From: a virus
Taxonomy: Duplodnaviria; Heunggongvirae; Uroviricota; Caudoviricetes
DNA: 16,182 nucleotides
Reading direction: 5' to 3' (one strand)
IMG/VR virus record: IMGVR_UViG_2526164689_000027
Span: 1-16,182 of that record
Part shown: piece by piece, positions 996 through 16,182 of the stretch
Layout of the letters: each line of letters opens with the position of its first letter
Numbering within the stretch: position 1 is the stretch's first letter
The notes under the pieces: model-generated
Told to the model about the DNA's origin: nothing
The model's database searches: none
What the model saw: only the letters and a program-made list of their open reading frames with translations
Program-made: the position numbers and the translations under genes

Positions 996-1020
996 AAAAA
1001 CCCGCTCAGCGGCGGGTTTT
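996..1020 (-). terminator. Rho-independent terminator, tR'-like, closing the short transcript from the Q-adjacent promoter; symmetric so possibly bidirectional
   Basis: Stem CCCGC (1001-1005) / GCGGG (1012-1016) with a 6-nt loop, flanked by A5 on one side and T4 on the other, so a U-run follows the hairpin on either strand. Confidence 0.5.
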
Positions 1021-1069
1021 GCTACTTTGCCATCACGTACAAAATCGGCAAAATATCAGATTTGCATGA

Positions 1070-1098
1070 AATATATGCCTTTTAATCTACTTTTGCAA
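1070..1098 (-). promoter_or_regulatory. Sigma-70 late promoter, pR'-like, immediately downstream of the Q-like gene
   Basis: On the minus strand: -35 TTGCAA (1098-1093), 17-nt spacer, -10 TATATT (1075-1070). Predicted start near 1062 gives a ~65-nt transcript ending at the 996-1020 terminator, the arrangement used by Q antiterminators in lambda and phage 82. Confidence 0.35.
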
Positions 1099-1102
1099 TA
1101 CT

Positions 1103-1771: not shown

Positions 1772-2127
1772 GCGCACTCCAGTTCTGTGATTTTTATCCC
1801 CAGCCGCCCACCAGAAACGAGCTGACCGCGCACAATATTGATTTCATCAAACTGCTCGTCGTCTATGAGAAGTCCGGCATGCGTCAGCGCATCCAGTGGT
1901 GCTTTCAGGATATTGTCCAGGTCACGACGGCGCTTATCCGGTGGCTCTGCAATAATTTTTATTGCCAGCCGTCCGGACAGGCTTAATTTCAGTCGCTGCT
2001 GGCGAACAATTAGTGCCACATCACGGCGATAACGCTCACCGACTTTTGATACAAAATATGTGTTGCCACGACGTCGCCAGTAAGTATTCACCGTCGGCGG
2101 GTAAGGTAAAACCAAATCTATGAGCAT
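1768..2127 (-). CDS. rusA: Crossover junction endodeoxyribonuclease RusA (Holliday junction resolvase)
   Basis: 119 aa with ATG at 2127 and GAGGTG SD. Contains LPYPPTVNTYWRRRG and PDKRRRDLDNILKAPLDALTHAGLLIDDEQ, matching the conserved RusA core including the catalytic DRRRRDLDN-type block. Confidence 0.85.
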   Translation of the reverse strand: MLIDLVLPYPPTVNTYWRRRGNTYFVSKVGERYRRDVALIVRQQRLKLSLSGRLAIKIIAEPPDKRRRDLDNILKAPLDALTHAGLLIDDEQFDEINIVRGQLVSGGRLGIKITELECA

Positions 2128-2139
2128 CAGTCACCTCTT

Positions 2140-3189
2140 TTACCCGAGCACGCCAGTCGCAAAGGCGTGATCAAGAAAACGAAAAATTAACTCAATCTGA
2201 GAGCCGTACTTTTTCTCAAACTTCAGCGGGTCTGCATGAAGTTCGTTGTGGTGCTCCCGGCACAACGGTAGCGTGAAAATATCGTGGGCCTTTGTTCCCA
2301 CTCCCCCCTGACCATGACCAATCAGGTGATGCGGATCGTCAGCTGGCTTACCACAACACGCACACGGCTGTGTCTTTACCCAGCGCGTGTATTTCTCATT
2401 AACCCAACGGCGACGTTTAGGCCGCCTCATGAACGATTCAGGAGACTCCGGATCAACGGCGATACTGACAACCGTTTTTTTCTGTGGTGGATTTTGTTGC
2501 TGGTGGACGTGAAGTGGCAGCGCAATATTTTTTGTGCGCTGCTTCAGTATGCTGATGGCTGTCTGTTCTCCCGGTACGATGTCACTCTCACGGTATACGG
2601 AGCGGATTTTTTCCGCTGGTAATCCCAGCGAACGACGCGCTACTGCCTCAGGTAGTGCATCCACCACCTGATTGCAGGCCGCCCACCAGGATAATTCGGC
2701 CAGCGATAACTCCCTCTCCTGCGTACCGCTTATTGCGTGACGGATGACATCAATCATCCAGGCAACCAGATTCTGCTGAGCAAGTTGATCGAGTGATTCT
2801 GATGTCTGGTCGCGCAGCTGGTTGTCACAGTGCCAGCACAACACCATCGCGCCGGTACCATAACGGTGAATGACTGTTTCGCTGTGATGATAATCGCCGT
2901 GTGGCCACTGGCAGGATTTCACGTGACGTAATAACCAGTCAGACAGTGCACCTGCACCACCTGCTGCACGAATAACCCGCTCATCGCTGAAAAATGGCAG
3001 TAATGTTTTATCCTCTGCCAGCGGCTGGCGAACGGCAGGAACGACTCCGGACGGCAGACCACGCATGTTTTTCGGTTCCGGCTCCACCAATATTCTGCCG
3101 TTATGGAATACTGACATTGATTCACGGCCTGGCTTAACGATAACCAGACCGAGTTCCGGTACCAGAACAGGTCGAAGTAATACCCGCAC
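2140..3189 (-). CDS. ydfU: DUF968-family prophage protein (YdfU-like) with C-terminal HNH-like motif
   Basis: 349 aa from a GTG start at 3189 with GGAGGT SD, 1 nt after the upstream stop. Synteny with rusA and the Q-like gene matches Qin ydfU. C-terminus CACCGKPADDPHHLIGHGQGGVGTKAHDIFTLPLCREHHNELH resembles an HNH/zinc-finger nuclease motif. Confidence 0.65.
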   Translation of the reverse strand: MRVLLRPVLVPELGLVIVKPGRESMSVFHNGRILVEPEPKNMRGLPSGVVPAVRQPLAEDKTLLPFFSDERVIRAAGGAGALSDWLLRHVKSCQWPHGDYHHSETVIHRYGTGAMVLCWHCDNQLRDQTSESLDQLAQQNLVAWMIDVIRHAISGTQERELSLAELSWWAACNQVVDALPEAVARRSLGLPAEKIRSVYRESDIVPGEQTAISILKQRTKNIALPLHVHQQQNPPQKKTVVSIAVDPESPESFMRRPKRRRWVNEKYTRWVKTQPCACCGKPADDPHHLIGHGQGGVGTKAHDIFTLPLCREHHNELHADPLKFEKKYGSQIELIFRFLDHAFATGVLG

Positions 3190-3190
3190 G

Positions 3191-3460
3191 TTACCTCCAG
3201 ATGCGCTGCAGGAATGTGCGGGACGGACGCGGTGGGCGTTCGGAATAAGGGAGCCTGACGGAGATTATCCAGTGACGACGATCGAAGCTGAGGGCTTTCT
3301 CAAACTCATATCCGCGCCTGCGGTAACACTGGATCAGCCATTCGGCCTGTTCTTCAGTGCATAGGGGATGCTGGAACCAGTCGGTTTTAAATACGTGCGA
3401 ACACCGCCCTTGCCTACTGGCAAGGGCGGCAGAATTGTGCAATCTGCTATCGTGCGCCAT
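3191..3460 (-). CDS. Hypothetical nin-region protein (89 aa)
   Basis: ATG at 3460 with GGAG SD about 9 nt upstream; the stop abuts the DUF968 start. No recognisable motif. Confidence 0.4.
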   Translation of the reverse strand: MAHDSRLHNSAALASRQGRCSHVFKTDWFQHPLCTEEQAEWLIQCYRRRGYEFEKALSFDRRHWIISVRLPYSERPPRPSRTFLQRIWR

Positions 3461-3513
3461 CGGGATCTCCGGTGGCACGGTGTTTCTCAGCGACGGTTCA
3501 AGTCAGCCTGATT

Positions 3514-3741
3514 TTATAGCTGCTTCTGAATATCATCAACAGGTAATCCTGCCAACTCTCTTACCTCAGAAAGAAGAGAAAGGCTTACAACAACCTCATT
3601 ACTTCGCATAACAAAACCACATTGAAAAGAACCATCACTGTTTCTGTAAACAACAACCGGGCGCGTGCTCTCATAAAACCCCGGGATCAAACTGGCTGGG
3701 ATTTTCACAACACCTCCTGACGTAAAGGAAATGAAATGCAT
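3514..3741 (-). CDS. Hypothetical small protein (75 aa; alternative start at 3786)
   Basis: Open frame on the operon strand; ATG at 3741 has only a weak purine-rich SD. No recognisable motif. Confidence 0.3.
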   Translation of the reverse strand: MHFISFTSGGVVKIPASLIPGFYESTRPVVVYRNSDGSFQCGFVMRSNEVVVSLSLLSEVRELAGLPVDDIQKQL

Positions 3742-3929
3742 TATCGCTTCTCTCGGACTATAACCATGAAAAGAGACGCATTTCACTCAGTAAATCTGAG
3801 GATTTTATGCGCAAGAACAATGACTTTTTCTGTCTGCCGTTTATACAATCTGAATTACGTCTATTTTTTGAACACCGATAAATCAGCAAGCATTCTCAAA
3901 TAAAGATTGCCTCCATAGTCCACATGGTG

Positions 3930-3944
3930 TAACACTATGTGTTA
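3930..3944 (+). promoter_or_regulatory. Palindromic putative operator in the promoter of the toxin-antitoxin pair
   Basis: TAACAC-TAT-GTGTTA perfect inverted repeat, overlapping an AT-rich -10-like TATATAAAAT about 20 nt upstream of the toxin ATG (3965). Type II TA operons are usually autoregulated through such palindromes. Confidence 0.3.
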
Positions 3945-3964
3945 TATAAAATGCAGAGGCAGGT

Positions 3965-4336
3965 ATGCGAATTTTCAAAAACGCCTGGTTTGAACGTTTC
4001 GCCCGAAAACATCGGATTTCCGATAAATCGCTGCGCAAAATCGTGGAGCAGGCCGATAAGGGGATCATATCCGCAAATTTGGGTAGTGGTGTCATTAAAC
4101 AAAGATTAGCCCGAAGTGGTGGCGGAAAATCAGGCGGTTACCGGACAATAATTTTTTACCGCGTTGCAGAAAAAGCCTTTTTCATCTACGCATACGCAAA
4201 GAATGAACGAGAGAATATCACTGCTATAGAGGAAAATGCTTTTCGAAAAGCCGCTCCCCATGTCCTCAATCTTACTGATGAACAGCTGGCACAATTGATT
4301 CAACAAGGCCAGTTCACGGAGGTACCCAATGAGTAA
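3965..4336 (+). CDS. RelE/ParE-superfamily toxin, HigB-2 / Gp49-like (123 aa)
   Basis: Block GSGVIKQRLARSGGGKSGGYRTIIFYRVAEKAFFIYAYAKNERENITAIEENAFRK parallels the V. cholerae HigB-2 core (GTGGLRKIRV...GKRGGSRIIYYF...YLLTIYGKNE). Its stop overlaps the start of the next gene by 8 nt, with toxin first as in HigBA-type operons. Confidence 0.7.
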   Translation: MRIFKNAWFERFARKHRISDKSLRKIVEQADKGIISANLGSGVIKQRLARSGGGKSGGYRTIIFYRVAEKAFFIYAYAKNERENITAIEENAFRKAAPHVLNLTDEQLAQLIQQGQFTEVPNE

Positions 4337-4646
4337 AAATTACCGCAGTGATGCACTTGCATCTGTACATGAAATGATGGAGTCACTCCATGATATCGGT
4401 GCAATCACAAAACAAACTATGCGCGAATTCGATGAAACTTGTCTTCAGCCTGCGCCGGTAATGTCTCCGGAAAGGATCCGTGCACTGCGAGAACGAGAGC
4501 ATCTGTCTCAACCTGTTTTTGCCAGATACCTCAACGTCAGTAAAAACCTGATATCAGACTGGGAACGAGGAGTGAAACGCCCGGGAGGTGCAGCTCTTCG
4601 GCTTCTTTCAGTTGTCGAGAAAAACGGGATCCAGGTAATATCCTGA
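4329..4646 (+). CDS. HTH (XRE-type) antitoxin, HigA-2-like (105 aa)
   Basis: Translationally coupled to the toxin. C-terminal region RIRALREREHLSQPVFARYLNVSKNLISDWERGVKRPGGAALRLL is a typical XRE helix-turn-helix. Confidence 0.7.
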   Translation: MSKNYRSDALASVHEMMESLHDIGAITKQTMREFDETCLQPAPVMSPERIRALREREHLSQPVFARYLNVSKNLISDWERGVKRPGGAALRLLSVVEKNGIQVIS

Positions 4647-4748
4647 TATTCTAATACAACAAAACCCGCCGAAGCAGGTTAAGTGCGGGTGCGTTGAGGA
4701 TGCCTGACACATCAGAGGTGGCGAGGGATTTCTCCCTCGCCAGGTCTC

Positions 4749-4904
4749 TTACTCCTCAGGTTCGTAAGCTGTGAAGACAGCGACCTCCGTCTGGCCGGTT
4801 CGGATTCGTACCTCGCAGAGGTCTTTCCTCGTTACCAGTGCCGTCACTATGACGGTTAAACAGATGACAATCAGGGCGATTAACATCGCCTTTTGCTGCT
4901 TCAT
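4749..4904 (-). CDS. hokD: Hok/Gef-family type I membrane toxin (HokD/RelF-like, 51 aa)
   Basis: MKQQKAMLIALIVICLTVIVTALVTRKDLCEVRIRTGQTEVAVFTAYEPEE matches the Hok/Gef family across its full length (transmembrane helix then conserved CEVR..GQTEVAVFTAYE). ATG at 4904; the track ORF extends in frame to an upstream ATG at 4961. Confidence 0.85.
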   Translation of the reverse strand: MKQQKAMLIALIVICLTVIVTALVTRKDLCEVRIRTGQTEVAVFTAYEPEE

Positions 4905-5175
4905 AGCCTGCTTCTCCTTGCCTTTCGGCACGTAAGAGGCTAACCTACATGTGCAAAGCATGAAATTGGCCTCAGATTAATGTTAAGCGTCCTGCAAGAC
5001 GCGTAATGTTAACTGGGGCTTTTCTCTGTCTGCCTTACGGCGGCATGCCCGAGGCAGACAGCCTCAAGCACCCGCAGCAATTCTACTTAACTCTTCTTTC
5101 CCCGCAAATCATTTTATCCCCGATGGTAATGTTCTCCCGATATGGGAATTCCCATATCAAGGTTAACTCAATCGG

Positions 5176-5727
5176 TTAAAGCTCCATTAATTTTCCGGCC
5201 AGTTCATCTCGTGGCATTACCAGCCATCCGCGCGATTTAAGCAAAGCCAGGGCTTCTTCAACCGTCACCAGCTGGCCAGGCGCATAACTTCGGATGAAGG
5301 CGGTTTTATCGTCACGGATCGCCAGGTGAAAATCGATATTCATTTTTCCCATAGCCCGCTCTTTCTCGTACTGGTTGAAGTAACTGTCTTCGAGTTTTTC
5401 GAATACTTCCCACGCCTGATCGGTTTCGAGCATTTTTGCATGACGGGCTGCTCCGCGTTCTGTCCAGAGGATGAGAGTGCGGGTTTTGGGAGAAATTTTC
5501 ACCTCATTTTGCGACTCGTTTAAAACTAGTCGCAAATTTTTGAGCTCATCACCAACAGCTTTAAAGAAGTGTTTTCCCTCAATAAATCGAGATTTATTTT
5601 CATGGTGATTCTGCTGTATACGGATTGCTTCTGTTCCGTAAAGGCGGGCGAGTAACTCAGTTGTGATTACAGGAATCTGGTTATAAGTGACAGGGGAAAG
5701 GTTTTTGACAGTAACTTGAGTCGTCAT
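5176..5727 (-). CDS. ORF6N-domain protein (phage antirepressor-like, 183 aa)
   Basis: ATG at 5727 with GAGGG SD. N-terminus ITTELLARLYGTEAIRIQQNHHENKSRFIEGKHFFKAVGDEL fits the ORF6N/KilA-N-like consensus (from recollection). Confidence 0.5.
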   Translation of the reverse strand: MTTQVTVKNLSPVTYNQIPVITTELLARLYGTEAIRIQQNHHENKSRFIEGKHFFKAVGDELKNLRLVLNESQNEVKISPKTRTLILWTERGAARHAKMLETDQAWEVFEKLEDSYFNQYEKERAMGKMNIDFHLAIRDDKTAFIRSYAPGQLVTVEEALALLKSRGWLVMPRDELAGKLMEL

Positions 5728-5891
5728 GATAACGCCCTCTGGTTGATGAATTTAACTATCACCACCTTCAGGTCTCAATCATCAGGTGGCGAGACGTACA
5801 GGGTTGAGACTACCGGATCAACCAACCGGCCAGCCTTTCGGCTGCCCCATACGCCTCACCATAATTCAGATGTGCGTGCGCATACGACAAT

Positions 5892-5913
5892 AAAAAACAC
5901 GCTCGCGGCGTGT
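5892..5913 (-). terminator. Rho-independent terminator in the nin-type region (tR2-like position)
   Basis: On the minus strand: stem ACACGC / GCGTGT with 5-nt loop CGCGA, followed by 6 U (complement of A5892-A5897). Confidence 0.45.
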
Positions 5914-5998
5914 GTCTGTCGCGGTTGAATATCCGGGGTCTCAATCCCGACGGTCAACTCGACCGTGCGGTGAATATAGCCCCGGATTAGTAATTACG

Positions 5999-6082
5999 TC
6001 AACCCCAGCGGCAAATCGAATAAACCACCAGCGCTACCGCCATTGCAACTCCTGCCGTTACGAATGCCTCAGGCCAGGTCAT
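5999..6082 (-). CDS. Possible 27-aa hydrophobic peptide (MTWPEAFVTAGVAMAVALVVYSICRWG)
   Basis: ATG overlaps the stop of the upstream small gene (ATGA, 6082-6079). The peptide is one predicted transmembrane helix. Below the size cutoff of the ORF track; no dedicated SD. Confidence 0.2.
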   Translation of the reverse strand: MTWPEAFVTAGVAMAVALVVYSICRWG

Positions 6083-6264
6083 CGTAAACTATCCTCAGCG
6101 CCAATCAGTCCGTTTCGCTTCAGGCAGTCCATCGCTTTATACGGTAATTTGGCTGACAGGCGAAAATCACCCTGCAGCATCAGGCTTATTCCCTTATCCC
6201 GGGCTTTCGCTCTGACCGCTGCCTCGCTACGACCAATCAGACTGCCGATACTTTCGACAGTCAT
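6079..6264 (-). CDS. Small putative DNA-binding protein (61 aa, NinH-like position)
   Basis: ATG at 6264; start is uncertain because the track ORF begins upstream at a non-ATG codon. MTVESIGSLIGRSEAAVRAKARDKGISL looks like a helix-turn-helix. Confidence 0.35.
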   Translation of the reverse strand: MTVESIGSLIGRSEAAVRAKARDKGISLMLQGDFRLSAKLPYKAMDCLKRNGLIGAEDSLR

Positions 6265-6323
6265 CGTTCCCGCGCACTGCCGGAGTATCAGAATTTCAGC
6301 CCGGCACCACGTCTTCCACCCAC

Positions 6324-7085
6324 TCACCGCTGCTGTTCTCTGGTGGCGGTAATATCCCGGAGAATATCCCGGCACTTGTTCAGCTCCCGCAGCGCGGCGC
6401 AGACTCGCTCCCACTTCTGAACCTGACCTTTTGCCCGGCGCAGCTCGCGGTTAGCCACATGCAGCGATGGTAAAATCAGCCCATCCGGATGCTTTCTGGT
6501 GAACGACGGCTGTGACTGCACTGTGACCGCCACACTTTCCGTTTTTATTTCTTCCTGTGTTTCCGCTTCCCGGACTGGTAACGCAACACATGCTGGCTGA
6601 GGAAAGGCTTTACCATCGGTTTCCGCTACGGATGCAGCTTCCGGCTCTGCCGGTAAATCAGCGCCCGGTATGCAGTAACGAAATTTACCGTTCTGATTTA
6701 CGCGTGCCAGGCGCCCCGTTGCTGTTACGACCGCCAACGTGGAAGCAACCTTGCGAATGCTAACACCGAACTTATCCGCCAGTTCCTCACACGTTTTAGC
6801 CCCATCCTGACAGATAAACTCAATCATCATGTCCGCGGTAACTTTTTGTTCGACCTCCCCGGTCAGCACATCCGGTACTTCAGACTGTGCTGGCTGTTCT
6901 TCGGTTACCCCGGATTCACCTTCGACAGCCAGAAACCAGGTGTGACCCGTTTTATCAACAACGCCATTTTTTTTGAGTTCCCACAGTTCGTTGAGAACTT
7001 CTTCACGGCTGATATCAAGCCGCGCCGCCAGTTCAACAGAATTGGCTTTACCCATCGCTTTCAGTGCATGCAATACGGTTCCCAT
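6324..7085 (-). CDS. Tandem winged-helix protein (254 aa), function unknown
   Basis: ATG at 7085 with GGAGG SD 9 nt upstream. Two repeated wHTH-like segments, [44 protein letters not shown] and [43 protein letters not shown], plus a charged C-terminal helix. Confidence 0.5.
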
Positions 7086-7119
7086 TAAAATTTCCTCCGG
7101 ATAAAAATTACTTCTCAAA

Positions 7120-7785
7120 TCAGACAAAACCAGCCGCTTTCCGGCGTTCATACTCCTGTTTCAGCAACTCAATTGGCGTTGGTCCCAACGGGCGTTTTGG
7201 TGCCGCCAGTTGTCGCCGTACTGGCGGAACGCTCAGGCCGTTACTAACATGCTTTGCCCATTTCGTCAGCTGCCGTTCTGCAAGCCGTTTTAATTCCCCT
7301 TCGGTCATCTGGCGTTCAATCCCCTTTGAACGCATCTCGAGGCAAATGTGATACAGCACAGGCTGAGGCCACGGATATTTGTCGCTTCCGTTATATCGCC
7401 AGGACTCATTACGCCAGCGGCGATACTCCTCCATCACAGCATCCACCGTCAGGCCAAATGGATTGGCCCCGCTTTCCGAAATCAGCGCCACAAACTCAGC
7501 CAGGTCCGGAGGCCATGTTTCACCCGCCCGGCAGCGGTCCATGCACTGGCGGCAGACCTGCCGGATTTGCTGCTCAGTCATCGCGCCAATCTGTGCAATC
7601 CAGAGCTTCGAAGGTGCGGCCCCGTTCTTCTGGGTCCAGCGGTTCGAATAAACCTCCCCCATGAGTTCCCACAGCTTCCAGGCCGTTTCCGTCGCTGATA
7701 AATCCGTTTTCACGTTCCCACTGCTCACGTGCTGCCCGAATTTCCTGAACTGCCCGTGATGCGGTGCCACCTGGTGCTGCTGCAT
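7120..7785 (-). CDS. Replication protein P-like (lambda P family helicase loader, 221 aa)
   Basis: ATG at 7785 with AGGGGG SD, 4 nt after the O-like stop. Recalled blockwise similarity to lambda P: [13 protein letters not shown] vs [28 protein letters not shown] vs [33 protein letters not shown] vs TDAELRRKAADEL. Confidence 0.6.
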
Positions 7786-7788
7786 GGT

Positions 7789-8613
7789 TTACCCCCTTGC
7801 TGACTGGTTAACCTGCGCCCTGACGTGATTTACGTGACGGGCGAATTTCTGCTCCCACTGAATCTGCGTAAACACTTTCCCCTCCGCTGCCCAGTAGTCC
7901 CGGAATGCGGTAAGTTCAGCAGGTGTAAATTCTGTCTCCGGCAAAGCCATCCCCCACAACGCAGCCCGTCGTCGAAAATCCCGTGACGGATACCAGCTAT
8001 CGGTCATCGGAAATTTTCCGATGGGTTCGCTCAGGCCATCCAGGAATACATGGGGGGCTGCCTGTAACGACAAAACTTCCTGCTCACTGATCGGAGCACT
8101 CTCGCGTGCGTTATGTGTGGGGTTTAGATCTTTGGGTTCCTTTGGGTTCCGTGATCCGTTTTTGGGTGTCTTTGATGGAAAATTTGGGTGTCTTTGGTTA
8201 TTTTCCATGCAACAAAGAGTTCCGTTTTTGGGGCTCTTTTGTGCTGAAACATAACCGTTTTCGGTACTGTTTTTATTAACAGCACCAATTTTACCCACCT
8301 TTAAAGACACCCGTTTTTGGGTGTATTCAGGCTCGGCAACACTTTCTTCTACACCGATAAGTCGGTACACCACAATTTGCTTTGTTCTGCCTTTTCTCTC
8401 ACCGGTATCAACAATTAACCCAATCTCCATCAGGTGTCGTAAGCTGTCCTGCACAGTCTTTTTGTTCAGTTCCGTTACTTCTGCCAGTGCAGATACAGAC
8501 GGGTATGCACACAAATCGGCACCGCACATATCAGCAAGCCAGGTCAATACAGACTTACTGGATGAACTGCCGGTTTTCACCTTTTTAGCCCATCGTAGTG
8601 CATCGATACTCAT
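7789..8613 (-). CDS. Replication initiator, lambda O-like (274 aa), with ori iterons embedded in the coding sequence
   Basis: ATG at 8613 with AGGGG SD; the track's longer start at 8688 would overlap the upstream gene by about 100 nt. N-terminal wHTH (MSIDALRWAKK...LRHLMEIGLIVD), a repeat-encoded linker (KSPKNGT...SKTPKNGSRNPKEPK), and a C-terminal domain, directly upstream of the P-like gene. Confidence 0.6.
   Translation of the reverse strand: MSIDALRWAKKVKTGSSSSKSVLTWLADMCGADLCAYPSVSALAEVTELNKKTVQDSLRHLMEIGLIVDTGERKGRTKQIVVYRLIGVEESVAEPEYTQKRVSLKVGKIGAVNKNSTENGYVSAQKSPKNGTLCCMENNQRHPNFPSKTPKNGSRNPKEPKDLNPTHNARESAPISEQEVLSLQAAPHVFLDGLSEPIGKFPMTDSWYPSRDFRRRAALWGMALPETEFTPAELTAFRDYWAAEGKVFTQIQWEQKFARHVNHVRAQVNQSARG
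8131..8324. repeat. Iteron cluster, putative prophage origin of replication
   Basis: TTTGGGTTCC twice in tandem (8131-8150); TTTGGGTGTCTTTG at 8161-8174 and 8184-8197; degenerate copies at 8225-8240 and 8311-8324; an inverted copy AAAGACACCC at 8303-8312; AT-rich stretch 8253-8300. Lies in the linker region of the O-like gene, as the lambda ori does. Confidence 0.5.
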
Positions 8614-9136
8614 ACGAACCCCTGGCAGATATTTGTTTATCTGCAAAGTAATATTGATACTGCTGACGATACGCATGCTTGAAAGCAATAGCTTTTTCTA
8701 TAAGCTCGTCAGTCTCACGTTCCACAACAGATGGATCCGCAAAAAGCAGTCCGGACTCCACCACATCGCCATATTCTTTGTTTAACCCGGCGATCATGTA
8801 CGTGATGCTTTTTCCGTCACTAATTTCACGATACAACCTGAAATCATTAATCCGGATAGCCTCCATAATTGCAGGCACTAGCGCCGTGAACTTTTCACGC
8901 TTATCCCTGGTGTCGATAGCCTTCCAGCGTTCGAATATCTTCACTCGATTAACGCCAAGCGCTCGCTGATCAACCGCGCCACCTTCATCTGTGACACGCT
9001 GAACATCGATGTTCGGGCGCTCTTTCAAAACCCAGAATGCTTCAGTGATTAATATCGTCGCCTGCTCCTGTGTCATTCCTGGTCGACATATCCAGGCATC
9101 CAGAGCCTCACGAGCCTGTTCAGGAGTGATTTTCAT
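8585..9136 (-). CDS. Protein in the cII position (183 aa), possibly YdaT-like
   Basis: ATG at 9136 overlaps the end of the cro-like gene by 17 nt. Sits between cro-like and O-like genes. Family assignment is by position only and is weak. Confidence 0.4.
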   Translation of the reverse strand: MKITPEQAREALDAWICRPGMTQEQATILITEAFWVLKERPNIDVQRVTDEGGAVDQRALGVNRVKIFERWKAIDTRDKREKFTALVPAIMEAIRINDFRLYREISDGKSITYMIAGLNKEYGDVVESGLLFADPSVVERETDELIEKAIAFKHAYRQQYQYYFADKQISARGSYEYRCTTMG

Positions 9137-9347
9137 TGTTCAACCGCCCCGCCCGCTTCGTCTTACGATATTCGTCATAAACCTTGGGATCATACAGAAG
9201 CTCGCCGCCAGATGCCTCCTGTAGACGCATCGCGCGACCTTCAGGAACTAGCTCTTGCCATTGAGAAACAGCAGATGGGTCAACGCCAGCAGCTTTCGCT
9301 ACTTTGGCTTTCGTACCGTAAAAATTAATTACGTCTGATTTAAACAT
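9120..9347 (-). CDS. dicC: Cro-like HTH regulator (DicC / YdaS family, 75 aa)
   Basis: ATG at 9347 with GGAGGT SD; the track start at 9374 is upstream of the SD. Divergent from the repressor gene. AKVAKAAGVDPSAVSQWQ is a Cro/CI-type HTH, and the C-terminus RAMRLQEASGGELLYDPKVYDEY is typical of this family. Confidence 0.65.
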   Translation of the reverse strand: MFKSDVINFYGTKAKVAKAAGVDPSAVSQWQELVPEGRAMRLQEASGGELLYDPKVYDEYRKTKRAGRLNNENHS

Positions 9348-9354
9348 CGCACCT

Positions 9355-9424
9355 CCAATATTGAGTTTTCTCAATACTAATCACTCAAGGAATCTCAAGT
9401 CAAGGGTTATTAAGATATCTAAAT
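9355..9424. promoter_or_regulatory. Divergent immunity promoter/operator region (oR-like)
   Basis: 14-bp palindrome TTGAGTTTTCTCAA at 9361-9374. On the minus strand, -35 TTGACT (9403-9398) and a -10-like TAGTAT follow with the palindrome over the start site. The repressor gene starts at 9425 with no strong SD. Confidence 0.45.
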
Positions 9425-9832
9425 ATGAACGAGAAAACTTTAGGTCAACGCATTAGAGAAAGACGTAAGCAGGTAGGCTTAAGTCAAAACGGTTTAAGCA
9501 AAGCTGCTGGCGTATCTGGCTCATCAATTTCATTATGGGAAAGTGACCATACAGCCCCGCGCGGGCAAAATTTGCATCGCCTCGCCGAGGTATTGCAATG
9601 TTCACCAACCTGGATACTGTTTGGCGACGAGGACAAAACACCAGCTCCCCCTGTTTCACTCGATAGTACCCTAGACTTATCGGAAGATGAGTTAGAGATG
9701 CTGCGTTTGTATCGCGCACTTCCTAAATCAGAGCAACAAGCACAACTCAGCGAACTCCGCGCCCGCGTTGAGAATTTTAATCGCCTGTTCACCGAGCTAT
9801 TAGAGGCTCGCAAACGCAACAAGCATCAATAA
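9425..9832 (+). CDS. dicA: DicA-like prophage repressor (XRE HTH, 135 aa)
   Basis: N-terminal HTH QRIRERRKQVGLSQNGLSKAAGVSGSSISLWESDH, then LQCSPTWILFGDEDK and C-terminus ELRARVENFNRLFTELLEARKRN, closely matching my recollection of E. coli DicA, which is also 135 aa. Confidence 0.8.
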   Translation: MNEKTLGQRIRERRKQVGLSQNGLSKAAGVSGSSISLWESDHTAPRGQNLHRLAEVLQCSPTWILFGDEDKTPAPPVSLDSTLDLSEDELEMLRLYRALPKSEQQAQLSELRARVENFNRLFTELLEARKRNKHQ

Positions 9833-9890
9833 TCATCCCTTCACAAAATTTTAAAGCCTTACATTTCAATGTATTGGCTTTATCTTGCGC

Positions 9891-9948
9891 CAATACTTGA
9901 GTTTTCTCATCAAAAAACCTTGACGAAAAATAATGAGAAAACTAAATT
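9891..9948 (+). promoter_or_regulatory. oL/pL-like operator-promoter for the leftward early operon
   Basis: CAATACTTGAGTTTTCTCA (9891-9909) repeats the oR motif CAATATTGAGTTTTCTCA (9356-9373) with one extra base; an inverted copy ATGAGAAAACTA is at 9932-9943. -35 TTGACG (9920-9925), 17-nt spacer, -10 TAAATT (9943-9948), with operator copies covering the spacer. Confidence 0.4.
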
Positions 9949-10024
9949 ATCTCCATCAACACACCGCACGGTGTTCTCCGCAAACAGTTCCGCTACCCCG
10001 GCGTTAAGGGGAAATGAGGTCAGC

Positions 10025-10177
10025 ATGGATACTATCGATCTTGGCAACAACGAATCTCTGGTATGTGGCGTGTTTCCCAATCAGGACGGCACGTTTACCG
10101 CGATGACGTATACCAGAAGCAAAACGTTTAAAACGGAAGCTGGCGCGCGTCGCTGGTTAGCAAGAAACTCTGACTGA
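10025..10177 (+). CDS. ydfA: YdfA-like small protein (50 aa), first gene of the dicB-type operon
   Basis: ATG at 10025 with GAGG SD 7 nt upstream; the longer track ORF from 9869 has no SD and crosses the promoter. Size and position after dicA match Qin ydfA. Confidence 0.5.
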   Translation: MDTIDLGNNESLVCGVFPNQDGTFTAMTYTRSKTFKTEAGARRWLARNSD

Positions 10178-10827
10178 TGAGGTTGACGATGGAATTTAAA
10201 GATTTACCTCCTTCAATCCAGGAGATTGCAGCACACACACTTCGTCATCGTCTGAACGAACTTGAATTGGAATCGGTAACGAAAAAAGACACTGATAATA
10301 TGGCTCGTAATGTGCGCGATGCGTTTACCGGATTGTATTTCTGTGCGTCTATAAATAAACACGACTCAGAGAGTGTGGCAAATAAAATTGCAGAAACGAC
10401 AGCGCAAAACATCAATACGAAACCAACGGAAGAAGAAATTGATCAGTTTGCTCATGATGCTGGTTTAAAAAACAAGAAAGAAAAATCGCCATATGCGGGG
10501 AACATGTTTGTTTATGACAATCTCATCAGAATTCGTGGCGAAATTCCGGCGGAATACCTGGCAAGAGTCCATCAGGCATTGCTTAAAAATTTGGAAACAG
10601 AATTATTTGATGGCAACACTAACGGTTTCTTCATGGTATCAGGCCTTGAGAAAGACTGGGATGCAGAAAAACGCTGGAATGTTGCTACATGGTTATTCAG
10701 TAACAGAGCCGCTGCACTGGAAGCTTCGGCATGTATTTGCGGCCTGTTCTTAACAGACCACAAATATAATCTGGATGTGTACAGTTATATTTACGCTGAA
10801 CACGGTCCACTCTGGATTGACTGGTAA
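10177..10827 (+). CDS. Hypothetical 216-aa protein, no recognisable domain (alternative start 10189)
   Basis: ATG at 10177 overlaps the upstream stop (TGATG); the internal ATG at 10189 has a GAGG SD. Soluble, acidic, no transmembrane segment or nucleotide-binding motif seen. Occupies the slot where I recall Qin carrying only the small ydfB/ydfC genes. Confidence 0.5.
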   Translation: MRLTMEFKDLPPSIQEIAAHTLRHRLNELELESVTKKDTDNMARNVRDAFTGLYFCASINKHDSESVANKIAETTAQNINTKPTEEEIDQFAHDAGLKNKKEKSPYAGNMFVYDNLIRIRGEIPAEYLARVHQALLKNLETELFDGNTNGFFMVSGLEKDWDAEKRWNVATWLFSNRAAALEASACICGLFLTDHKYNLDVYSYIYAEHGPLWIDW

Positions 10828-11037
10828 TTATAAGGAAACACCAGCAGGGCCGCGGCGACCAACAGAACGATTAAAATCAATAATGCCATTATAAAGGACA
10901 TTATTTAATTTATCGTCGAATGCTGATTCTGTGAGCCTCAACTCTGAATGAGTTTTTAATAACCCTGATTGCCTGAGTTGATTTACCAGGCATTCAATCT
11001 GTTTTTCAATAAGCGGATTTCTTTTTTTGTTTGGCAT
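10828..11037 (-). CDS. Hypothetical 69-aa protein, convergent with and abutting the 216-aa gene
   Basis: ATG at 11037 with GGAGGA SD 5 nt upstream. Its stop codon (10830-10828) directly abuts the stop of the plus-strand gene (10825-10827). Opposite orientation to the surrounding operon. Confidence 0.35.
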   Translation of the reverse strand: MPNKKRNPLIEKQIECLVNQLRQSGLLKTHSELRLTESAFDDKLNNVLYNGIIDFNRSVGRRGPAGVSL

Positions 11038-11376
11038 TTTATCCTCCATTGAGGTTCTGGGTTAAAAATGGAGACCAACACGCTGTCACGTGTGGTCGTG
11101 CGCCGGACACGGATAAGAATCCGGTACTGACAGTTTACTGAAAGGATATTTCCCTGAAAAGTCAGTGCATAACGCGAAAGCGTACGGCGAAGCTCTTTCC
11201 CTTAGAAGGCTTGTCGTTAGATTTCTTCGAACGTGCGCTTCCGGTTGTGGCACTCCGCGAAATGGCGCGGCGGTAAGTATGGCGGGGTTATTCCTTCCCC
11301 AGTTGAGGACACCGGGTTGTCAGGTTGACCATACGCTTAAGTGACAACCCCGCTACAACGCCCTCTGTTATCAATA

Positions 11377-11434
11377 TTCTGGTGACATTTGGCGGTATCA
11401 GTTTTACTCCGTGACTGCTCTGCCGCCCTTTTTT
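11377..11434 (+). ncRNA. dicF: DicF small regulatory RNA (Hfq-dependent sRNA targeting ftsZ and other mRNAs)
   Basis: TTCTGGTGACATTTGGCGGTATCAGTTTTACTCCGTGACTGCTCTGCCGCCCTTTTTT matches my recollection of E. coli DicF almost base for base, including the terminator hairpin GGCGG (11391-11395) / CCGCC (11423-11427) and U-tract. Lies just upstream of dicB as in Qin. The 5' end is approximate (RNase-processed in K-12). Confidence 0.7.
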
Positions 11435-11604
11435 AAAAGTGAATTTTGTGATGCGGTGAATGCGGCTCAGCGCACGCGGAACAGTTAAAACCAAAAACAG
11501 TGTTATGGGTGGATTCTCTGTATCCGGCGTTAATTGTTAACTGGTTAACGTCACCTGGAGGCACCAGGCACCGCATCACAAAATTCATTGTTGAGGACGC
11601 GATA

Positions 11605-11793
11605 ATGGAAAAGTTATCATGTAATGCCAGCACGTCTGAACTTCGTTTCGAAATTGGCGTTATCACTGGAGACAAAACATTTATTGAAGACGCCATTAAG
11701 CAGAGAAAACTCGAGCAGGACCTGTTAAATGAAGTATGCATTCCTTCAATGCTGGCTCGTCTGGACCTGCTGCAAAAAGGATATAAACAATGA
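11605..11793 (+). CDS. dicB: Cell-division inhibitor DicB (62 aa)
   Basis: ATG at 11605 with GAGGA SD; the track ORF from 11500 would run through DicF. MEKLSCNASTSELRFEIGVITGDKTFIEDAIKQRKLEQDLLNEVCIPSMLARLDLLQKGYKQ aligns with recalled DicB (FEIGV, EDAI, SMLARL blocks) at the same 62-aa length. Confidence 0.8.
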   Translation: MEKLSCNASTSELRFEIGVITGDKTFIEDAIKQRKLEQDLLNEVCIPSMLARLDLLQKGYKQ

Positions 11794-11981
11794 ATACAAC
11801 ATTTGCACTCGTTCTGACAGTTTATCTTGTTTCCGGCGAATCTCTTGAGCTGGTGACTGGCTTATACGGTTCAATGAAAGAATGCATGGCTGCAGCAGCA
11901 GAACAAAAAATTCCCGGTAACTGTTATCCGGTAGATAAAACTACTCACACTAATAATAACGAAATACCGGCAGGACTTTAA
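11790..11981 (+). CDS. ydfD: YdfD-like small lysis/membrane protein (63 aa)
   Basis: ATG overlaps the dicB stop (ATGA). Hydrophobic N-terminus MNTTFALVLTVYLVSG, 63 aa, immediately after dicB as in Qin. Confidence 0.65.
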   Translation: MNTTFALVLTVYLVSGESLELVTGLYGSMKECMAAAAEQKIPGNCYPVDKTTHTNNNEIPAGL

Positions 11982-12074
11982 AACAGCACCGTAATTAATA
12001 TCCGGTTTCATTTTTATATGCCAGCAATGGCAGGGATTTGTTCACCCTTAAATCTGTAATGAGGTTAAAACAAA

Positions 12075-14546
12075 ATGAGTAAAGTCTTTATTTGCGCCGC
12101 CATTCCGGACGAACAGGCAATAAAAGAAGAGGGCGCAGTTGCTGTAGCCACTGCCATTGAAGCCGGTGATGAACGCCGCGCCCGTGCCAAATTTACCTGG
12201 CAATTCCTGGAGCAATATCCTGCTGCTCAGGACTGCGCTTATAAATTTCTTGTCTGCGAAGATAAACCTGGCATGCCCCGCCCTGCTATCGACTCCTGGG
12301 ATACCGAATATATGCAGGAAAACCGCTGGGATGAGGAATCCGCTTCCTTTATTCCGGTCGAACCAGAATCCGATCCTATTAACGTCAATTTTGACAAGCT
12401 GTCCCTTGAAGTACAGAACGCGGTCCTGGTTAAGTTCGGTACATGTGAAAACATCACCGTTGATATGGCGATTGACGCGCAGGAATTACTGCAAGAAGAC
12501 GTGGCTACCTTTGACGGACATATCGTTGAAGCACTGATGAAAACGCCTGAAATTAACGCTATGTATCCGGAACGCAAACTGTTCGCTATCGGATGGGTTA
12601 AACACAAATGTAAGCCGGGTACCAAATGGCCCGAAATTCAGGCTGAATTACGTAACTGGAAAAAACGGCAGGACGCAGAGCGCAAAGAGACTGGAAAATA
12701 CACGTCTGTTGTTGATCTTGCCCGCGCCAAAGCCAACCGACAGCACACTGAAAACCCAGCAGAAAAAATCCCTCCTGTAACTGCCGCCATTCATCGCGAA
12801 TACAAGCAGACATGGAAAACCCTGGACAGGGAGCTGGCCTACTATCTCTGGCCTGGTGATGCGGATGCCGGAAACATTGACGGCAGCATCCTTCGCTGGG
12901 CTAAAAATGAAGTTATCGCCAGAGATCGCGAAGACTGGAAGCGCATCTCCGCATCAATGCGCAAACAACCTGATGCGCTTCGCTACAGCCGCCAGACTAT
13001 TTTTGGCCTTGTCCGTGAACGTCCGATCGACATTCACAAAGACCCTGTGGCACTGAACAAATACATTACTGAATACCTGACTACAAAGGGCGTGTTTGAA
13101 GATGAAGGAAGAAATCAGAGCGCAACTGATACTCTCTCGTCGCCAGTACCAGAAACTGATGCAGTGGAAACGGCAATTCAGGACAACGAAAAAACCGAAT
13201 GCAAAGTGGAAGTCGAATCATCTGTAGAGCGTGAGGGGCCGTTCTACTTCCTCTTCAGCGACAAGGATGGCGAAAAATACGGTCGTGCAAACAAACTTTC
13301 TGGTCTGAATAAGGCGCTGGCTGCAGGGGCTACTGAAATCACGAAAGAAGAATATTTTGCCCGCAAAAACGGTACATACTCAGGTTCACAACAAAATACT
13401 GGTGCATCTGACACGATCGCACAACCGGAGCCGGTAAAAGTTACCGCTGACGAAGTAAACAAAATTATGCAGGCAGCCAATATCAGCCAGCCTGACGCCG
13501 ATAAGTTGCTTGCTGTATCACGTGGTGAATTTGTTGCAGGGATTAGCGACCCGAATGATCCGAAATGGGTGAAGGAGATTGAAACCCGCGATTCAGTGAA
13601 TCAGAACCAGCAAGAAACGGAACAGAACGACCAGAAAGCGGAACAAAACAGCCCAAATGCGTTACAAAACGAGCCAGAAACGAAACAATCCGAACCAGTA
13701 GTGCAACAGGAACCGGAAAAAGTCTGCACCGCCTGCGGTCAGAGCGGTGGCGGCAACTGCCCCGATTGTGGCGCTGTCATGGGCAACGCAACATACCAGG
13801 AAACATTCGATGAAGAGAATCAGGTTGAAGCTCAGGAGAATGATCCGGAGGAAATGGAAGGCGCTGAACATCCACACAAGGAGAACACTGGCGGCAATCA
13901 GCATCACGCCAGCGATAGTGAAACTGGCGAGGCGGCAGATCCCTTAATTAAGGTGAATGGTCATCACAATCTCACATCCACCAGCAGAGCGGGGATTCAT
14001 CTGATGATCGACATTGAAACCATGGGAAAAAATCCCAATGCCGCGATTATCTCAATAGGCGCAATATTTTTCGATCCACAAACCGGAGATATGGGACCGG
14101 AATTTAGCAAGACCATCGATCTGGATACTGCTGGCGGAGTTATTGATCGTGACGTCATTAAATGGTGGCTGAAGCAATCACGTGAAGCGCAGTCTGCCAT
14201 TCTGACCGATGAAATCCCGTTAGATGATGCACTACTGCAATTGCGGGAATTTATCGCCGAAAACTCCGGTGAATTTTTTGTTCAGGTCTGGGGAAATGGA
14301 GCCAACTTCGACAACGTGATTTTACGCCGTTCATACGAACGGCAGGGGATCCCCTGCCCCTGGCACTACCACAACGATCGCGATGTACGCACAATCGTTG
14401 AGCTAGGGAAAGCCATAGACTTCGATGCCAGAACAGCTATCCCATTCGAAGGTGAGCGCCACAATGCACTTGATGACGCCCGTTACCAGGCAAAATACGT
14501 TTCAGCTATCTGGCAAAAACTGATCCCGAGTCAGGCTGATTTTTAA
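12075..14546 (+). CDS. Large prophage exonuclease (823 aa): unassigned N-terminal region, Cys4 zinc ribbon, C-terminal DEDDh 3'-5' exonuclease domain
   Basis: ATG at 12075 with GAGG SD. C-terminal motifs MIDIETMG (Exo I), WGNGANFDNVIL (Exo II) and HNALDDARYQ (Exo III) define a DnaQ-like DEDDh exonuclease. CTACGQSGGGNCPDCG (about 13721-13775) is a CxxC...CxxC zinc ribbon. Position corresponds to Qin ydfE, which I recall as a 306-aa IS-truncated remnant in K-12. Confidence 0.75.
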   Translation: MSKVFICAAIPDEQAIKEEGAVAVATAIEAGDERRARAKFTWQFLEQYPAAQDCAYKFLVCEDKPGMPRPAIDSWDTEYMQENRWDEESASFIPVEPESDPINVNFDKLSLEVQNAVLVKFGTCENITVDMAIDAQELLQEDVATFDGHIVEALMKTPEINAMYPERKLFAIGWVKHKCKPGTKWPEIQAELRNWKKRQDAERKETGKYTSVVDLARAKANRQHTENPAEKIPPVTAAIHREYKQTWKTLDRELAYYLWPGDADAGNIDGSILRWAKNEVIARDREDWKRISASMRKQPDALRYSRQTIFGLVRERPIDIHKDPVALNKYITEYLTTKGVFEDEGRNQSATDTLSSPVPETDAVETAIQDNEKTECKVEVESSVEREGPFYFLFSDKDGEKYGRANKLSGLNKALAAGATEITKEEYFARKNGTYSGSQQNTGASDTIAQPEPVKVTADEVNKIMQAANISQPDADKLLAVSRGEFVAGISDPNDPKWVKEIETRDSVNQNQQETEQNDQKAEQNSPNALQNEPETKQSEPVVQQEPEKVCTACGQSGGGNCPDCGAVMGNATYQETFDEENQVEAQENDPEEMEGAEHPHKENTGGNQHHASDSETGEAADPLIKVNGHHNLTSTSRAGIHLMIDIETMGKNPNAAIISIGAIFFDPQTGDMGPEFSKTIDLDTAGGVIDRDVIKWWLKQSREAQSAILTDEIPLDDALLQLREFIAENSGEFFVQVWGNGANFDNVILRRSYERQGIPCPWHYHNDRDVRTIVELGKAIDFDARTAIPFEGERHNALDDARYQAKYVSAIWQKLIPSQADF

Positions 14547-14615
14547 TGTTCAACCATCGCCGGTTGTGACTGGTATTCTGCAACCGGCCCTCATCTGATG
14601 TAAGAGATAAAAGCG

Positions 14616-14867
14616 ATGAGCGAAGTAATCATGATTGTCTCTCCCGGTAAATGGGTATCCGAAGAGCAGTTAATTGCGCTGAAAGGAATAAAAAAAGGTA
14701 CGTTAAAAAAGGCCCGGGAAAAATCGTTTATGGAAGGAAGGGAATATAAGCATGTCGCTCATGACGGTATGCCATGGGATAACAGTCCATGCTTTTACAA
14801 CCTGGAAGAAATTGATCGCTGGATTGAGCGCCAGGCATCTGCAAGACCAAGACGTCATCTTGCTTGA
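14616..14867 (+). CDS. Excisionase-like protein (83 aa)
   Basis: Small basic protein directly upstream of the integrase; WVSEEQLIALKGIKKGTLKKAREKSFMEGREYKH is consistent with a winged-helix Xis fold. Start is uncertain (14616 or 14631). Confidence 0.5.
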   Translation: MSEVIMIVSPGKWVSEEQLIALKGIKKGTLKKAREKSFMEGREYKHVAHDGMPWDNSPCFYNLEEIDRWIERQASARPRRHLA

Positions 14868-14901
14868 CTAAAAGCAACACGAACCAATGAGAGAAGCTGA
14901 A

Positions 14902-16182
14902 ATGAAATATCCGACAGGCGTGGAAAACCATGGAGGGAAATTACGTATCTGGTTTGTTTATAAAGGTGTAAGAGTCCGGGAAAATCTTGGGGTTCCTGAC
15001 ACAGCAAAAAACAGGCGCATTGCAGGTGAGCTACGCGCCTCTGTTTGTTACGCAATAAAAACTGGCGCTTTCGACTATGCAAAACAGTTTCCCGCCTCAC
15101 ACAATCTGGAAAAATTTGGTGAGGCCCGACAAGATTTAACCATAAAAGAACTGGCTGAAAAATTTCTGGCACTGAAAGAAACTGAAGTCGCAAAAACGTC
15201 ACTCAACACGTACCGTGCCGTCATCAAAAATATTCTGAGCATAATCGGTGAAAAAAATCTTGCATCATCGATTAATAAAGAAAAATTGCTGGCGGTACGT
15301 AAAGAGTTACTGACTGGATACCAGATCCCCAAAAGTAACTATATTGTTACACAACCAGGGAGATCGGCTGTTACCGTAAATAATTACATGACAAATCTTT
15401 ACGCCGTGTTCCAGTTTGGTGTTGATAACGGTTATCTGGCAGACAATCCATTTAAGGGGATCTCACCATTAAAGGAGTCGAGAACCATCCCGGATCCACT
15501 TTCGCGGGAGGAGTTTATCCGCCTTATTGACGCGTGCAGAAATCAGCAAGCCAAAAATTTATGGTGTGTTTCCGTTTATACTGGGATTCGCCCTGGTGAA
15601 CTCTGTGCGCTTGGATGGGAAGATATAGATCTGAAAAATGGAACAATGATAATCAGAAGAAATCTGGCAAAAGACCGTTTTACAGTACCAAAAACACAGG
15701 CGGGAACCAATCGTGTGATTCACCTTATTAAGCCCGCAATCGACGCTCTCCGGAGTCAGATGGCACTAACGAGACTGAGCAAAGAGCATATCATCGATGT
15801 TCACCTCAGAGAATTCGGCAGAACAGAGAAACAAAAATGTACCTTTGTTTTTCAACCTGAAGTGTCAGCGAAAGTAAAAAATTATGGTGACCATTTTACC
15901 GTTGACTCAATAAGGCAGATGTGGGACGCAGCGGTAAAGCGTGCCGGAATCCGCCATCGCAAATCGTATCAGTCGAGACACACTTATGCCTGCTGGTCGT
16001 TAACAGCAGGAGCTAACCCGGCATTCATTGCAAACCAGATGGGCCATGCAGATGCGCAAATGGTGTTTCAGGTGTACGGGAAATGGATGTCAGAAAATAA
16101 TAATGCGCAGGTAACGCTGTTAAATACACAGTTAAGCGAGTTTGCCCCAACCATGCCCCATAACGAAGCGATGAAAAGTTAA
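14902..16182 (+). CDS. Tyrosine-type phage integrase (426 aa from ATG 14902; alternative ATG 14887)
   Basis: Catalytic-domain signature RPGELCALGWEDID ... SRHTYACWSLTAGANPAFIANQMGHADAQMVFQVYGKWM (R, H-x-x-R, G-H, Y). N-terminus MKYPTGVENHGGKLRIWF is typical of lambdoid prophage integrases. The stop TAA is at 16180-16182, the window end. Confidence 0.85.
   Translation: MKYPTGVENHGGKLRIWFVYKGVRVRENLGVPDTAKNRRIAGELRASVCYAIKTGAFDYAKQFPASHNLEKFGEARQDLTIKELAEKFLALKETEVAKTSLNTYRAVIKNILSIIGEKNLASSINKEKLLAVRKELLTGYQIPKSNYIVTQPGRSAVTVNNYMTNLYAVFQFGVDNGYLADNPFKGISPLKESRTIPDPLSREEFIRLIDACRNQQAKNLWCVSVYTGIRPGELCALGWEDIDLKNGTMIIRRNLAKDRFTVPKTQAGTNRVIHLIKPAIDALRSQMALTRLSKEHIIDVHLREFGRTEKQKCTFVFQPEVSAKVKNYGDHFTVDSIRQMWDAAVKRAGIRHRKSYQSRHTYACWSLTAGANPAFIANQMGHADAQMVFQVYGKWMSENNNAQVTLLNTQLSEFAPTMPHNEAMKS

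Follow-up and report, generated by a model that had tools for sequence, protein, structure and literature searches.

A convergent two-gene cassette between ydfA and dicF in the early operon of a lambdoid prophage

The IMG/VR record IMGVR_UViG_2526164689_000027 (Caudoviricetes) is represented here by its positions 1 to 16,182, and this whole stretch of 16,182 nucleotides is called the window. It is a lambdoid prophage adjoining rspB/ynfA, and its 2.1-kb segment 9400-11500, which was used for searches, is identical to Escherichia coli O111:H11 strain 8D. Between ydfA and dicF the early operon contains two genes that meet 3' end to 3' end, a large gene on the plus strand and a small gene on the minus strand, the latter preceded by a structured leader (Table 1). 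The block formed by the two genes is very probably a mobile, selected module.

Both open reading frames (ORFs) that a first-pass annotation of this DNA had placed here are found in the ORF listing, at 10177-10827 on the plus strand (216 aa) and at 10828-11049 on the minus strand (73 aa). The longest minus-strand ORF has an internal ATG at 11037, which gives the 69 aa reported. The stop codons touch as had been claimed, with the plus-strand TAA at 10825-10827, the minus-strand stop (tta) at 10828-10830, and a spacer of 0. The profiles of the PHROG database start at residue 5 of both longest ORFs, and RefSeq/PGAP gives lengths of 212 and 69 aa. Because of this profile start and the RefSeq/PGAP call, the large gene most likely begins at ATG 10189 rather than at 10177, and its product most likely has 212 aa instead of the 216 aa first given. 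The Shine-Dalgarno sequence of the 69-aa frame, described as strong, is GGAGGA, or TCCTCC on the plus strand.

The neighbours had been read correctly as a dicA-ydfA-dicF-dicB-ydfD operon. They comprise a DicA-like repressor with an HTH_3 domain, YdfA (DUF1391), the DicF RNA, DicB, and YdfD (DUF1482). The block had looked AT-rich by eye, and its GC content is 0.404 against a window mean of 0.480, and only 0.2% of stretches of 861 bp are as low. It is the most AT-rich stretch of the window, and dicB and ydfD are similarly AT-rich (0.41). The GC content at third codon positions is 0.385 in the large gene, 0.30 in the small gene, and 0.485 in the exonuclease gene.

The content of the slot between ydfA and dicF is variable. 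When the slot is taken as the interval from the end of ydfA to the start of the conserved dicF precursor, its length ranges from 448 bp in K-12 to 1173 bp, and at least nine content types occur in 40-odd loci. The pair itself is present in 568 of 5426 complete E. coli genomes, including prophage Sp11 of O157:H7 Sakai (ECs_2211 and ECs_2212), and each exact protein is found on about 1000 contigs. The block is thus an exchangeable cassette, as suspected, and is not found at every copy of the locus. In K-12 Qin, as the annotation had said, ydfB and ydfC occupy this position of the DicA-repressed operon. In the alignment to Qin the slot content differs, the YdfB and YdfC translations are unlike the window pair throughout, both genes lie on the plus strand, and no convergent gene is present. 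Homology to Qin starts again at about 11097. In some loci YdfB is present beside the pair as a separate gene.

A recurring layout comprises a plus-strand gene starting with MEFKDLP and, after it, a convergent small gene. Seven cassette types have this N-terminal module in common, and the C-terminus and the convergent small gene are different in each. The lengths of the two products are 212/69 aa here, 121/66 aa in phage mEp460_ev081, and 179-186/65-84, 135-201/77, and 129/about 104 aa in other cassettes, with 119/64 aa in Salmonella and a further Salmonella form of the window pair at 200/69 aa. From one cassette to another, neither the C-termini nor the small proteins are related, and all belong to PHROGs of unknown function or to none. 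The initiation region ATGGAGGATAAAATG is identical ahead of four different minus-strand genes in five cassettes. A Salmonella prophage (L050, 6001-7500) with Mu-repressor-like and Ner-like genes and no DicF has two cassettes in tandem, 200/69 aa and then 119/64 aa, each followed by the same three-hairpin element as in the window. Other cargo consists of single minus-strand genes: a 148-aa protein with two predicted transmembrane helices (PHROG 6315, function unknown) in L006, L010, and L033, a 143-aa Cys-rich protein (PHROG 1244) in L032, and a 106-aa membrane protein in L045. None of these three has a PADLOC or significant Pfam match.

The large protein matches PHROG 2151 over its full length (E 1.9e-147, residues 5-216 of the longest ORF). 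It had been described as a protein without an identifiable motif. This is correct in that it matches no characterised family, but a modular build is recognisable, with an N-terminal module and a C-terminal domain. The N-terminal module consists of two helices with the consensus MEFKDLPxxIQxIAAxxL...NVRDAFxGLY, and it also matches PHROGs 1363, 9419, 6937, and 33007. It heads many phage proteins of 50-200 aa that have unrelated C-termini. In an exhaustive hidden Markov model (HMM) search, more than 40 clusters have this module alone in common while their tails differ, and a protein of 204 aa (P0203) consists of two tandem copies of it. Many proteins of 60-70 aa are composed of the module alone. 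This occurrence on its own and in tandem suggests that the module is probably an autonomous small domain with a function of its own. It is widespread, and the C-terminal domain is rarer. The AlphaFold2 model of the large protein has a predicted local distance difference test (pLDDT) score of 65 and comprises four helices followed by a beta-beta-alpha-beta-beta-alpha-beta domain, in which no catalytic motif is evident. The alleles of the large protein are mosaic. Among divergent alleles of E. coli and Salmonella, the ratio of nonsynonymous to synonymous substitution rates (dN/dS) of the large gene is 0.23-0.50, with values of 0.11-0.20 for the C-terminal domain and of 0.34-0.54 for the N-terminal part.

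The small protein matches PHROG 4274, likewise over its full length (E 1.4e-51, residues 5-73 of the longest ORF). It is hydrophilic and predicted to be soluble. Its AlphaFold2 model (pLDDT 74) is a helical hairpin of helices 8-24 and 37-61 with a disordered tail, and the fold matches of this model are uninformative. The tail, GRRGPAGVxL, is conserved, basic, and rich in Gly and Pro, and RRGPAGV-x-L is the most invariant feature of the protein. The dN/dS of the small gene is 0.00-0.26 between divergent alleles, and close alleles differ by 0-1 nonsynonymous against 3-8 synonymous changes (1 against 8 between L003 and L046). Two IMG/VR contigs (L022 and L024) have 6 instead of 7 A in codons 3-5 and the small gene is frameshifted, which could be a sequencing error or slippage. 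The low dN/dS and the presence of small-protein homologues (44-54% identity) at the same relative position in distant prophages indicate that both ORFs are real genes, subject to purifying selection, and not chance ORFs.

Database searches assign neither protein to a characterised family. Searches of Pfam, NCBIfam, PADLOC, and PDB sequences with both proteins found nothing significant, nor did profile searches with the alignments of the N-terminal module and of the small protein. The defence-system components of PADLOC-DB v2 have no match at E<=1 to either protein or to the alternative cargo of the slot. Of the roles named in the first-pass annotation, exclusion, anti-defence, and host takeover, none is supported by PADLOC. 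No exclusion family or other named family was found for either protein in the Pfam-A scan (E<=1) and the PHROG scan, and PHROGs 2151 and 4274 are both listed as function unknown. HMM and structure searches, proposed with the first-pass annotation as a check, gave no confident match to a characterised family for either protein. The sole name given by a source is 'Ybl81', and no paper on these genes was found under ECs2211/ECs2212 or Ybl81. By tblastn against 50,697 phage records the small protein has no match, and the large protein has matches through its N-terminal module only. In the databases searched, the pair is thus found only in prophages of bacterial genomes and in IMG/VR contigs.

The pair is kept together over large distances. 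It is retained in seven lineages (the window, L050, L135, L136, L139, L141, and L143), and in these each small-protein homologue (44-77% identity) is encoded convergently with a gene for the C-terminal domain, the 3' ends touching or overlapping. Between clades the identity of the C-terminal domain is 30-44%. For this domain, the exhaustive search yielded just two remote relatives, P0179 and P0191 (30-39% identity). They have another N-terminus (MFNVKRNG...), and P0179 also has an inserted helix-turn-helix domain of the XRE type, which matches Pfam HTH_3 and the repressor and CII-like families of PHROG. Both lie in Salmonella-type prophages with an integrase-repressor-Cox immunity region. Each locus has a small ORF that converges on the large gene, overlaps its 3' end, and encodes a clear homologue of the 69-aa protein (52% identity, E 4e-25; 46%, E 1e-13). 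Six further loci, Salmonella members found by profile search, were examined, and the small gene overlaps the 3' end of a convergent C-terminal-domain gene in all six.

The pair therefore occurs in three backbones: the DicA/DicC lambdoid type, the Mu-repressor/Ner-like type of Salmonella, which carries the version with the N-terminal module, and the integrase-repressor-Cox type of Salmonella. In all three, the large gene is located in the early operon downstream of the immunity region. Since the small protein and the C-terminal domain stay together even where the N-terminus changes, the conserved unit is the C-terminal domain plus the small protein. This marks the C-terminal alpha/beta domain of about 115 aa and the predicted helical-hairpin protein of 64-69 aa on the opposite strand as the functional core. 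The deep co-conservation suggests that the two may act on each other.

Losses are also found. Among 110 large-protein clusters, 17 end in WIDWFKG. In both WIDWFKG loci examined (L043, 2260-2340; L146, 3136-3614) the small gene is internally deleted and the large gene is intact. L146 has another minus-strand gene of 106 aa further right of the deleted small gene, and L043 has a Cys-rich minus-strand ORF further right, read by eye from the raw translation. One locus shows the reverse, a frameshifted large gene beside an intact small gene.

The leader of the small gene contains three predicted hairpins. In the first, 11044-11049 pairs with 11068-11073, so that CUCCAU pairs with AUGGAG of the Shine-Dalgarno region and the ribosome-binding sequence is covered. 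The second pairs 11073-11082 with 11089-11097, and the third 11102-11107 with 11120-11124. All three are predicted alike in nine contexts, which include unrelated small genes and a distant Salmonella clade, and they recur in every cassette type examined. Overall, 96% of the cells are paired, compared with 30-48% in slid controls, and none of 500 shuffles reaches the observed value. The stem of the first hairpin is invariant and its loop is variable. The stems of the second differ by clade, and three of the four comparable pairs change on both sides. All these compensatory changes separate two clades, and they may for this reason reflect few independent events. The second hairpin does not co-vary with the small protein, and the same second hairpin is found beside unrelated small genes. 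K-12, which lacks the minus-strand gene, has a hairpin at the position of the second and keeps the third. Being palindromic, the element may function within the leader of the minus-strand gene, within the dicF precursor of the plus strand, as a processing site for example, or at the DNA level.

Table 1. Features of the ydfA-dicF slot and its borders in the window.
Feature	Coordinates	Strand	Identifiers
Large gene, 212 aa	10189..10827	+	PHROG 2151; WP_000394548.1; ECs_2211 in O157:H7 Sakai Sp11
N-terminal module, residues 1-55 of the large protein	10189..10353	+	
C-terminal alpha/beta domain, residues ~99-212 of the large protein; the part travelling with the small gene	10483..10824	+	
Small gene, 69 aa	10828..11037	-	PHROG 4274; WP_001133037.1; ECs_2212
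Shine-Dalgarno sequence GGAGGA of the small gene, 5 nt ahead of ATG 11037	11042..11047	-	
Three-hairpin element upstream of the small gene	11044..11124	-	
Run of 7 A in codons 3-5 of the small gene	11022..11028	-	
ydfA-like gene (DUF1391), left border of the variable slot	10025..10177	+	
dicF precursor region, conserved, ending in DicF (11377-11428); right border of the slot	11097..11428	+	

The exchange of cassettes, the retention of the pair, and the selection on both proteins make it very probable that the two genes form a selected module of temperate enterobacterial phages, which moves between prophages and occupies a recombination hotspot in their early operons. On the left this module is bounded by the coding sequence of the N-terminal module, and on the right by the initiation region of the small gene together with the leader.

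A more specific reading, which is favoured only tentatively, is that of a phase-switched antagonistic pair, in which a small protein made in the lysogen and a large protein made after derepression oppose each other. In the lysogen, the DicA-type repressor would keep the large gene silent, and the small protein would be made. Expression at this stage is proposed from the position of the small gene, which is antisense to the lytic operon in the usual moron layout. Prophage genes that run antisense to lytic genes are typically accessory loci with expression during lysogeny (PMC7067206). Operons of the dicBF type are repressed by DicA and are turned on in a subpopulation, in bursts, or with an antirepressor (PMC10448788). 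Upon derepression, transcription of the early operon would cross the small gene and silence it by transcriptional interference and antisense pairing. The large protein would then bind the leftover small protein through its C-terminal domain and neutralise it. Since the genes meet at their 3' ends, any two transcripts are mutually antisense, and since they have no spacer, the two transcripts must interfere. Convergent transcription would in this manner keep the two products mutually exclusive.

According to this antagonistic reading, the small protein would be a lysogen-phase factor that, for example, hinders incoming related phages or restrains an early function, with the large protein as the factor by which the phage itself escapes or counters it. 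The N-terminal module would serve as a common functional handle and also as the left recombination handle by which C-domain/partner cassettes are swapped. The large gene is often kept without its partner, the small gene seldom, and this loss pattern fits a lysogen-phase factor with a self-escape factor better than a toxin-antitoxin pair.

The sieB/esc/sas locus of P22 and lambda is a precedent for exclusion and self-escape under antisense control (PMC12197685). It is likewise an accessory locus in the lambdoid early-left region, and it comprises a lysogen factor, a self-escape function, and antisense RNA control. In contrast, the window pair has no sequence or family match to it in Pfam or PHROG, its small protein is predicted to be soluble while the SieB-type criterion is a membrane protein, and it consists of two separate convergent genes instead of nested reading frames. 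BstA/aba is similar in concept, with a prophage factor active in the lysogen and an element that spares the phage's own lytic growth (PMC8585504). BstA, however, is large and has DNA as its immunity element, and the window pair has no PADLOC match.

Several observations weigh against the antagonistic reading. The promoter/terminator scan found no sigma-70 promoter for the small gene that fits at 9/12 or better, and it gave no more sites than shuffled sequence. A weak candidate, TTTTCA-17-TAAACT, was seen by eye only and is not of acceptable quality. The scan found no intrinsic terminator for the pair either, and this absence, together with the zero spacing or overlap of the genes, counts in favour of the reading. 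The earlier view of an inserted two-gene cassette with its own regulation is thus supported as to the exchangeable cassette and not supported as to the regulation, where a conserved structured leader is present but no convincing promoter or terminator. Both structure models are of modest confidence and their fold matches are generic, those of the C-terminal domain being to ACT/ferredoxin-like and ArgR-C regulatory folds. Either gene can be lost separately. In L139 and L141 the C-terminal domains are 90% identical and the small proteins 61%; this argues against tight specificity and shows that recombination happens between the two partners. Shiga toxin (Stx) phages have a protein with the N-terminal module and no convergent partner.

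The last three observations are also those expected if the two are independent, non-interacting accessory genes that are carried together by tight linkage and conserved flanking handles, and the stand-alone minus-strand genes of 148, 143, and 106 aa that the slot also accepts are consistent with this. Such an arrangement is unlikely, although it has to be taken seriously. Adjacency, orientation, and 3' contact are kept at 30-50% protein identity and in three backbones, despite a changed N-terminus and a change of all neighbours, and linkage alone should not keep a pair together in mosaic genomes and in a replacement hotspot.

It is improbable that the minus-strand transcript acts mainly as RNA, with the protein secondary. 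Such an RNA, transcribed constitutively into the early operon, would by convergent transcription be a brake on leaky expression of the toxic genes dicF, dicB, and ydfD further downstream, or would, like STnc6030, exclude superinfecting phages that have the same cassette. The obligatory 3' overlap without a detected terminator, the conserved leader and initiation region common to different small genes, and the many unrelated minus-strand genes at exactly this position upstream of dicF/dicB agree with this idea. Precedents are STnc6030 (PMC7067206), sas (PMC12197685), and the toxicity and layered control of dicBF (PMC10448788). The strong purifying selection on the small ORF is, however, at the protein level, as the excess of synonymous changes indicates. 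The protein is 44-54% identical where the DNA has diverged, so that the small protein itself is selected, and in the Salmonella contexts neither dicF nor dicB follows downstream.

A toxin-antitoxin or abortive-infection module, with the C-terminal domain as the toxic effector and a small labile protein as the antitoxin, is a distinctly improbable explanation. Like type II toxin-antitoxin systems, the pair is a two-gene module on mobile elements whose small partner has a disordered tail. The tail GRRGPAGVxL could serve as a degradation signal, and other cassette types have the same layout. Unlike type II systems, which are co-directional and bicistronic, the genes are convergent and not co-transcribed, and neither matches a toxin or antitoxin family in PADLOC, Pfam, or NCBIfam. 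The C-terminal domain has only ACT/ferredoxin-like fold matches and no evident catalytic motif. In both WIDWFKG loci examined the putative antitoxin is deleted and the putative toxin is intact, with the caveat that the large gene is repressed in lysogens.

A small protein that binds DNA or RNA as a regulator (acting, for example, on its own leader palindromes or on the early operon), with the C-terminal domain for oligomerisation or sensing, is very unlikely: the basic, Gly/Pro-rich tail, the helix-turn-helix of P0179, the resemblance of the C-terminal domain to ACT and ArgR-C regulatory folds, and the adjoining palindromic hairpins would fit it, but the small protein is predicted as a two-helix hairpin and not a helix-turn-helix, the second hairpin does not follow its changes, and no similarity to Rem or to CII of coliphage 186 is present.

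A relation of the small protein to the Qin antirepressor Rem was considered separately and rejected, since the two have no similarity. Kinship of the window large protein and of P0179 with 186 CII was rejected as well (BLASTP E 0.89-1.8). The layout at the 186 cII/pE region is similar in that the large gene of the Salmonella Cox-type prophages follows cox/apl as cII does, and antisense transcription into the early operon is known in 186 (record annotation). It differs in that most homologues of the large protein have no helix-turn-helix, and the window protein has no match to one.

CdiA-CT/CdiI and Rhs systems resemble the cassettes in architecture only. They also have a conserved N-terminal part, a swappable C-terminal domain, an adjacent small gene, and tandem cassettes. 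The proteins encoded here are small, cytoplasmic, and free of secretion or toxin domains. The partner is convergent and not downstream and co-directional, and the location is a phage early operon.

Other parts of the prophage contain further features. The DicB allele at 11605-11793 (MEKLSCNASTSELRFEIGV...) is clearly diverged from K-12 DicB (MKTLLPNVNTSEGCFEIGV...), and loci with K-12-like DicB match the window DicB at only 66-69% identity. The 823-aa 'exonuclease' at 12075-14546 has a Rv2179c-like 3'-5' exoribonuclease domain that is confined to the last ~180 residues, and ahead of this domain lies a long acidic low-complexity region with a Cys4 motif. On the minus strand, 5782-5966 has matches to the C4 antisense RNA and isrK upstream of an ORF6N-domain gene and looks like a c4/isrK-type antirepressor control module. 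A sok antitoxin RNA (4899-5073, minus strand) adjoins hokD, with a RelE/ParE toxin and helix-turn-helix pair beside it. A match to the small RNA STnc100 is located near the left end (536-724, minus strand).

Accessory cassettes of lambdoid early regions are already known. No description of the module, of the family of the N-terminal module, or of the shared leader was found in the libraries and literature searched. In a wider and rather speculative view, which is improbable, the slot and equivalent early-operon positions of other enterobacterial prophages would host an undescribed polymorphic system of early N-module proteins with swappable C-terminal domains and cognate antisense small proteins behind a shared structured leader. 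These would be exclusion/escape cassettes of phage against phage, or lysogeny/lysis checkpoint cassettes, and would diversify through recombination at two conserved handles.

Although the pair is very common, it is unnamed, is assigned to no characterised family, and is treated in no paper that could be found. It is located directly upstream of dicF and dicB, which affect cell division, metabolism, and phage resistance and, in enterohaemorrhagic E. coli, virulence regulation. Because of this adjacency, convergent transcription from the small gene could influence the expression of the operon. Should the cassettes prove to be cognate pairs of antagonists, the slot would offer a new source of genes for phage-phage competition or for lysis-lysogeny control, and more of them could be searched for by a simple rule: a gene with the N-terminal module, a convergent small gene, and a three-hairpin leader.

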